A DNA stretch of 64,000 nt from Mustelus asterias (taxonomy: Eukaryota), in assembly GCF_964213995.1 (NCBI RefSeq), contig NW_027590162.1, positions 1 through 64,000 of the forward strand, read 5' to 3'. Both the position numbers and the translations under genes were made by a program. The notes beneath the pieces are model-generated. The model was not told where the DNA came from. It saw only the letters and a list, made by a program, of their open reading frames with translations, and did no database searches. This document shows positions 49,712 through 50,618 of the stretch, in pieces. Numbering within the stretch: position 1 is the stretch's first letter; every line of letters starts with the position of its first letter.

Positions 49712-49848
49712 GATTTATTTGATTTCTTATTGTGACAAGAAATAATTACTATGCTGTGAAAACTCTGGTTTCTTGCGCACTCTACAGACCGAGCATACCG
49801 TTCGCAGAGTATATAGGGGAGAAGGAAAGGGTGCAGAACGTAGTGTTA
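49712..49848 (-). mobile_element. Rex1/Babar LINE extreme 3' end (about 137 bp)
   Basis: Matches 30695-30828 and the reverse complement of 36540-36656. Confidence 0.8.
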
Positions 49849-49858
49849 AAAATCCTTC

Positions 49859-49941
49859 TACCAGGAGTGGGGTTCGAACCCACGCGGACATATGTCCATT
49901 GGATCTTAAGTCCAACGCCTTAACCACTCGGCCATCCTGGT
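49859..49941 (-). tRNA. tRNA-Leu(TAA)
   Basis: ACCAGGATGGCCGAGTGGTTAAGGCGTTGGACT-TAA-GATCCAATGGACATATGTCCGCGTGGGTTCGAACCCCACTCCTGGTA; trailer GAAGGATTTTT. Confidence 0.95.
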
Positions 49942-50618
49942 ACGAAAACTAGATGTGATTGGGACACATTCCTGCTGTTTGATTGCTGGATTGAAAATGT
50001 GCCTTTGGAATCATTTCTGTTCTCGGAGACTGTGGAATTGTGAGAAGGAGCTGGGACATTCTTCCCTGTAACTCCTGTGGAGGAAATATCTGGTTTCTTC
50101 AAATATTTATCTGTGGAAACAAAGTACATTTAATATCTCAAATACAGATTCCGTCAGTTTAATCTCTATTAATAACCAGTGTGAGCGGTTTGTGAGGCTG
50201 CAGCCAGACTCCAGCTCTGATTGGTCACTCTCATGTCAATCCAATTCTTCACCAATCGGAGAGCAAGGGAGAAGAAATGGGAGGTTTTGATTGGTTCACA
50301 TTTTCAAACTGGAAAAACCCGCCAATTTCAGTGCAGGAAAAATACAAAATAACGGAACGCCTGAATGTTCAGGAAACTATTTCAATCTCACACTTTATAA
50401 TCTGTTTATTGTATTTTCCCTCACAGAATCCTGGCGCTATTTTAGGAACAGTTTGAATTTCTCAATCTCTTATCTGTAACCCGCGGTAATCAGACCCCGT
50501 TCAGCAATTTAAAACGGAGCAAATCTCACCTCAGTGGAAAAGCAGAAACATAGAGATCACCAACCAGCCCCTTCACACAGACTTCACAGGGACAGAGGGA
50601 AACGGCTGATTTCTGATC

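Follow-up and report, generated by a model that had tools for sequence, protein, structure and literature searches.

Small RNAs joined to the 3' end of a LINE are known from several systems. For U6, chimeras with L1, L2 and RTE LINEs as well as with SINEs were described, and short target-site duplications were observed where the partner is not L1 (Doucet et al. 2015, PMC4476161; Moldovan et al. 2019, PMC6789731). These retrocopies contain a whole Pol III RNA in sense orientation, i.e., U6 ending in four to eight Ts, joined to a 5'-truncated LINE with its 3' end, and Rex1 is not named as a U6 partner in the accessible sections of both papers. Moreover, for primates it was shown that tRNA sequence and a LINE-1 3' end can be inserted in one event, the accessible sections of the report giving 21 loci with mostly antisense tRNA halves (PMC11838501). 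Unprocessed tRNA as a template of retrotransposition is known from pre-tRNA retropseudogenes mobilised by L1 (Schmitz et al. 2004, as cited in the accessible sections of PMC4476161). Finally, tRNA-derived SINEs with LINE tails, such as HE1/HER1 of sharks and rays and SINE2-5_NV with its partner Rex1-24_NV, place a Pol III head before a LINE 3' end (PMC3747384, in the part available), and a Pol III head before a LINE 3' end is also what the template-switch model of SINE birth predicts (PMC5786205, likewise in part).

The locus described here, a tRNA-Leu(TAA) joined to a likely Rex1 3' end in the shark Mustelus asterias, shares with the U6/LINE and U6/SINE retrocopies the whole small RNA in sense orientation, the T-run joined directly to a 5'-truncated LINE and a likeness to the source gene that is limited to the transcript. 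It differs from them in that a pre-tRNA with leader and trailer takes the place of U6 and Rex1 that of the partner, and in that the tRNA copy carries its whole promoter inside and can stay active. Whereas the primate chimeras mostly contain antisense halves, the tRNA is full-length, sense, unprocessed and conserved. In contrast to the retropseudogenes mobilised by L1, the unit has a Rex1 tail, was multiplied by segmental duplication and is apparently not a pseudogene in several classes of copies. Unlike HE1/HER1 and SINE2-5_NV, the unit has a terminator separating head from tail and an unchanged tRNA as its head, and interspersed copies were not seen. What makes the unit notable is that many of its duplicates have apparently retained the tRNA. 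No report of this locus or of a pre-tRNA/Rex1 chimera was found in a literature search that had most subscription papers outside its scope.

The window, i.e., the whole stretch of DNA that was analysed, comprises 64,000 nucleotides (NW_027590162.1:1-64,000 of Mustelus asterias GCF_964213995.1; contig C130 among the genome contigs). Histone genes, six predicted tRNAs and numerous pieces of LINEs and SINEs are found in it, and the retrocopy likely landed in a histone gene cluster. Copies of the site carrying the unit are grouped below into the filled classes A to E and paralogues lacking it into the three empty classes F to H; the C15 gene is a tail-less tRNA-Leu(TAA) gene on contig C15. The window contains the following features, all on the minus strand except the last.

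49946..49950 (-): probable left target-site duplication remnant, degenerate; ancestral AACTC inferred from other classes
49942..49945 (-): pre-tRNA 5' leader remnant, 4-6 nt; in classes C, D and E, five of the last six nt agree with the C15 gene
49859-49941 (-): intact tRNA-Leu(TAA) with internal Pol III promoter (ARAGORN; Rfam RF00005, 65 bits)
49848..49858 (-): 3' trailer (6 nt) and Pol III terminator (five Ts), from the sequence and comparison with the C15 gene
49715..49847 (-): 5'-truncated Rex1 LINE 3' end of about 133 nt, ending in AATCA-type repeats (alignment)
49710..49714 (-): probable right target-site duplication remnant; ATCTC in the window, AACTC in most classes
30312..30517 (-): empty paralogue with contiguous flanks, neither tRNA nor tail (local and multi-copy alignment)
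30412..30416 (-): empty-site junction, AAGTC here and AACTC in class H
30695..33850 (-): decayed near-full-length Rex1 LINE with endonuclease-like ORF, RT and the same 3' end as the tail
35040..36654 (+): another decayed Rex1 element, sharing this 3' end and containing pieces of RT and PF09004

The window tRNA has an intact cloverleaf with internal promoter and terminator, and no CCA is encoded at its 3' end. It is followed on the minus strand by the trailer GAAGGA (49858-49853) and five Ts (49852-49848), and a second T-run of four Ts lies within the Rex1 tail (49762-49759). T-run and tail have one T in common and no target DNA between them. An intact tRNA-Leu(TAA) followed by a Rex1/Babar 3' end had been proposed from the letters of the window, and ARAGORN, Rfam and the alignment agree with this. 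The proposed tail of about 137 nt directly behind the trailer is present, its start being corrected to 49847, after the T-run; likewise the unit of about 237 bp placed at 49712..49948 is real, with its upstream start shifted to about 49950. This is roughly 9 nt upstream of the mature tRNA, where the alignment with the empty site stops, and the alignment resumes at the last repeat of the LINE. An AACTC-like 5-mer flanks the unit on both sides and occurs once in the empty site, the match being 5 nt long only and degenerate on the left: the multi-copy alignment shows AACTC or AAGTC once in the empty classes, and AGCTC, AATTC, AGTTC, AGTTT and others at the left position of the filled ones.

The tail could be traced to LINEs in the window and elsewhere. 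The segment 49848-49712 matches the LINE 3' ends at 30826-30695 (71.5%, E=3e-14) and 36538-36654 (70.3%, E=5e-11), and the window tail also matches the 3' ends of seven of the 12 PF09004-bearing genomic loci that were fetched. The identity of the tail to Rex1 3' ends amounts to 69-83%, depending on the class. The same 3' end lies behind PF09004-bearing ORFs elsewhere in the genome, where the tails of other classes reach up to 84%; this is in keeping with the earlier reading of the tail as a Rex1/Babar 3' end. For the LINE at 33.8-30.7 kb the Pfam endonuclease and RT matches are weak; in the second copy PF09004 lies above cut-off. This first LINE was inserted independently and lies about 180 nt away from the empty site. 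Fish proteins with RT and PF09004 are relatives of the window LINE, none of them labelled Rex1. By eye, the ORF start at 33.5-33.3 kb resembles ScyCan_Rex1-1 over the 400 nt of the latter that were available, and, as in the elasmobranch Rex1 elements ScyCan_Rex1-1 to -3, a poly(A) tail is missing from the window LINE (PMC13343379, in the part available). PF09004, the endonuclease- and RT-like pieces and the agreement with ScyCan_Rex1-1 make it likely that the family is Rex1. An assignment to Zenon was ruled out by the Rex1 match and the missing poly(A) tail, which is given as a mark of Zenon in the accessible part of the same source (PMC13343379). The LINE family is very abundant, with 60,766 first-look PF09004 candidates in the genome, and very short 5'-truncated Rex1 ends are common, four independent ones starting at most 16 nt from the start of the tail.

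The flanks of the unit match 30445-30517 (79%) and 30312-30413 (75%), with 31 nt in between and no tRNA or tail. The sequence-only reading had claimed that the flanks are contiguous near 30.4 kb without tRNA or LINE, and the alignment within the window confirmed a true empty paralogue at 30312-30517. This comparison rests on local and multi-copy alignments; a two-sequence MAFFT alignment misplaced the upstream flank and was set aside. In a further, older flank paralogue at 57.2/56.3 kb of the window, tRNA and tail are absent and a CR1 occupies almost the same position; in a paralogue on C5 the empty-site profile matches across the junction (nhmmer, E=7e-5). In a tree of the flanks with the insert omitted, for which 27 rows were chosen to represent the classes, the filled copies form one clade against the empty and older paralogues (support 91/90). 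The downstream flank alone gives a filled clade with support 98/100, and with the upstream flank alone (102 columns) the filled copies are not recovered as one clade. The upstream flank of class C is 86% identical to the empty copies over 98 nt, nearer than to the other filled classes, and a topology in which class C groups with the empty copies is not excluded by the AU test (p-AU 0.21). As the filled copies form one clade in the flank tree and the C5 paralogue is contiguous, the empty state is likely ancestral, with moderate support, and a single insertion into an empty ancestor is, at the same moderate support, the best reading of these comparisons. As a separate observation, the older paralogue at 57412-56250 (-) contains an exon-like block, judged by eye from an acceptor and a GT donor, and a 930-bp CR1 near the spot of the tRNA unit; relatives of this gene-like unit are present on C5, C70, C72, C73, C81, C134 and C169.

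The genome of 3.68 Gb was searched with the unit and its flanks, which resulted in 41 matches among the best 40 candidates; nine contigs account for all of them. Thirty of the loci were fetched, and these have flanks in common that mostly extend over kilobases. Altogether 63 distinct tRNA-Leu(TAA)-type places were fetched, 58 of which have both the tail and the upstream flank and five neither; the downstream flank is also present in 57 of the 58 cluster copies. A degenerate pattern of the trailer-tail junction gave 48 matches, 47 on the nine cluster contigs and one, without tRNA, on C19, and eight further cluster places from this list share at least one flank. A search for the junction at unrelated sites had been proposed by the sequence-only reading, and a copy of tRNA plus tail at such a site was not found among the best 40 candidates scored or with exact patterns. 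Neither was a paralogue with tRNA and no tail, which had been named as the finding that would speak against one insertion event, present among the 58 cluster copies. Since all 58 carry the tail and the upstream flank, the earlier claim that the unit of about 237 bp was inserted in one event is most likely correct. The unit is now found in at least five classes (A-E) of segmental paralogues, always with the same flank, the flanks being about 76-88% alike. As the copies share flanks, the unit has spread by segmental duplication; jumping was not seen. Over 3.4 kb, the window and contig C103 agree in 99.7-100% of positions; haplotype duplicates may be present among the contigs, so that the number of distinct loci among those fetched is at most that of the copies counted. 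Just past the window, at C130:64800 (L217), the unit is present once more in inverted orientation, as a copy of class E whose tRNA has decayed; this copy pairs with the inverted repeat 50619-51226 versus 64000-63362 in the window.

The C19 piece (L114 1330-1600 / L221 3154-3400; 53.48 Mb) consists of trailer, tail and 104 nt of the cluster downstream flank without a tRNA. It starts at most two bases from the tRNA 3' end, and a whole SINE follows the flank. No convincing target-site duplication was found around it, the best candidate being 7 nt with one mismatch. The piece may have arisen by retrocopying of a read-through trailer that 3' processing had removed, or by copying at the DNA level.

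A candidate for the parent of the cluster tRNA is the C15 gene (L084), which is identical to the window copy in 83 of 83 positions, with GC-rich DNA upstream and non-repeat DNA following the T-run. Classes D2 and E have exactly its 6-nt trailer; the trailer is one base off in B and D, and agrees in four of six bases with the window copy. The outer flanks of the C15 gene match nothing at the cluster site. Because leader, body and trailer are common to both and the outer flanks are not, an RNA intermediate with pre-tRNA as template is indicated. A search with tRNA end and trailer gave 30 matches, of which 22 do not contain the tRNA 3' end and were discarded as chance matches. Besides L084 and two cluster copies, all five of the remaining matches have a retroelement starting right after the T-run:

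L183 (C1), L188 and L189 (C4), L082 (C11): trailer joined to a tRNA-derived SINE
L083 (C15): trailer joined to a CR1 end

These off-cluster joins represent at least four events, the C4 pair with its 5'-cut tRNA heads probably going back to one, and around the whole tRNA+SINE unit of L183 a 5-nt duplication (TACTG) was seen by eye. Joins of this kind correspond to those reported for U6 with L1, L2, RTE and SINE partners (PMC4476161, PMC6789731). On C3 (146.67 Mb, L081, c1465-1636) a decayed tRNA-Pro with T-run is followed by tRNA-Leu(TAA) behind a 9-nt leader of the cluster type, and then by a shortened trailer and the end of a CR1. This three-part join suggests that a cluster-type copy was once transcribed and that its transcript ended at its own T-run.

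Taken together, we consider it probable that the unit goes back to one old event of chimeric retrocopying, in which an unprocessed tRNA-Leu(TAA) transcript was joined at its U-run to the last 133 nt of Rex1; larger DNA duplications would then have copied it, and several lineages likely retained it as a functional tRNA gene. Pol III starts a few bases upstream of a tRNA and terminates at a T-run. The Rex1 RT would have nicked an intron-like site in an ancestral cluster unit, copied about 135 nt of the 3' end of its own RNA and continued on a C15-type pre-tRNA with short leader, tRNA, trailer and U-run. The join could have been made by a template switch or by prior RNA ligation, and both fit the sequence with its one common T at the junction. 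RtcB ligation needs a cyclic-phosphate end, which is present on U6; the U-run of a pre-tRNA ends in a 3'-OH, and for this reason a template switch fits better than ligation. The unit was afterwards likely multiplied only within larger segmental duplications. In the copies, Pol III is predicted to stop at the five Ts and to give an ordinary pre-tRNA, leaving the tail untranscribed. This would explain why the unit never spread as a SINE: the tail would be a passenger, and the unit would not be recognisable by Rex1 as a SINE RNA.

Classes A, B and a portion of D have kept the tRNA body much more faithfully than tail and flanks; in C, in E and in the remaining D copies the body has decayed. When A is compared with B, the tRNA is identical in 82 of 83 positions, compared to 263 of 329 for tail and flanks (Fisher p=2.9e-6, for this one class pair), and the tail (87/123) even lies below the downstream flank (136/157); classes A and D agree in 82 of 83 tRNA positions as well. 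In contrast, class C matches the C15 gene in 72 of 83 positions, and deletions occur in E and much of D. Judged by ARAGORN, 35 of the 58 cluster copies pass as Leu(TAA). As the tRNA body is conserved above tail and flanks, many copies likely work as tRNA genes, and selection on a working tRNA appears to be the simplest cause of this conservation, with gene conversion as its rival. Copies of small RNAs made by retrotransposition are usually regarded as dead. However, the promoter of a tRNA is internal, so that a pre-tRNA copy with its own terminator can work at once, and the locus offers a traceable case for selected copies, with a source gene, empty sites and duplicates in at least five classes, of which some are retained and others have decayed.

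The sequence-only reading had also assigned a proto-SINE structure to the unit. The parts fit, as a Pol III head from a tRNA and a 3' tail in common with a partner LINE are both present, but T5 splits head from tail, the copies are immobile and only the tRNA is conserved. A head and tail free of terminators, interspersed copies with flanks of their own and a joint conservation of head and tail are lacking: T5 lies before the tail and T4 within it, all 58 tail-bearing copies among those fetched share the upstream flank, and between A and B the head agrees in 82/83 and the tail in 87/123 positions. A SINE family pairing the Rex1 tail with another head was not found either, four short tail copies having unrelated upstream DNA. 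By its structure and distribution the unit is thus not a SINE, and is best described as an immobile chimeric retrocopy with the architecture proposed for SINE birth. It points to a barrier in the template-switch model, since a join at the U-run places the terminator before the LINE tail.

Other explanations differ in how the parts came together. A history of two events, in which a pre-tRNA copy was inserted first and a short Rex1 end followed at its T-run before the duplications took place, appears quite unlikely. A separate insertion at the T-run is not far-fetched, because very short Rex1 ends are common; the family is also very abundant, and the duplication at the unit ends is degenerate. 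However, none of the 58 cluster copies represents the tRNA-only stage, target DNA is missing between T-run and tail, and at least four further events have linked the same trailer, again at its T-run, to a different retroelement, one of them with a duplication around the whole unit. It is very unlikely that a native tRNA gene received a Rex1 insertion behind its terminator and that the 30.4-kb lineage deleted both between the AACTC-like repeats. The upstream flank of class C, with its likeness to the empty copies, and the unrejected tree that joins them speak for such a deletion. Against it, the older C5 paralogues are contiguous and the 57-kb type has no tRNA or tail at the spot, the downstream tree splits filled from empty copies (98/100), the deletion would need to end at both unit ends, and the trailer in common with the C15 gene without its outer flanks argues for an RNA intermediate.

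With the origin as a chimeric retrocopy retained, the cluster copies might nevertheless all be silent and their tRNA bodies be kept alike by gene conversion, which multi-copy clusters undergo. The 23 of 58 cluster copies that ARAGORN no longer calls as Leu(TAA) fit this. We regard it as unlikely since the identity stops at the mature ends, with trailer and leader beside an 83/83 body differing from those of the C15 gene, and since high tRNA identity recurs in three classes. Hardly credible is a real but rare SINE with tRNA head and Rex1 recognition tail that was retrotransposed as a whole. Both required parts are present and the C19 piece, with trailer, tail and 104 nt of flank, could derive from read-through RNA; it does not contain the tRNA, however, and the terminators before and within the tail, the failure to find a tRNA-plus-tail copy at an unrelated site among the best 40 candidates and with exact patterns, and the independent evolution of head and tail all speak against it. 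Returning to the single chimeric retrocopy, a bolder reading, which we put forward tentatively, is nearly as likely as not: one retrocopy made by a LINE would have founded a working tRNA-Leu(TAA) subfamily that far outnumbers its single source gene, so that chimeric retrotransposition would be a real route to functional tRNA genes in sharks, and the unit would also be a SINE precursor one terminator loss short of mobility, with the C19 piece recording read-through RNA.

Several further observations concern the neighbourhood and other tRNAs. Behind the tRNA-Leu(CAG) at 20739-20821 (-) a SINE-like piece starts about 10 nt after the T-run, which may be a chimera or a later insertion. ARAGORN calls a 'Phe(aaa)' at 12199-12289 (-), which resembles an intron-bearing tRNA-Arg(TCT); a CR1 reaches up to its 5' end and another CR1 follows after about 48 nt. 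In L163 and L165 (both 512-594) ARAGORN finds a tRNA with the anticodon TCA, in L165 beside a tRNA-Gly, and this is likely a tRNA-Ser(TGA) paralogue whose anticodon now would read the UGA stop codon. Decayed ORFs of an LTR-type, Gypsy-like retroelement lie at 57819-61439 (-). Finally, arrays of a 36-bp unit are found beside the H2B genes at 26994-28584 (45 copies) and 62169-62601 (12 copies).
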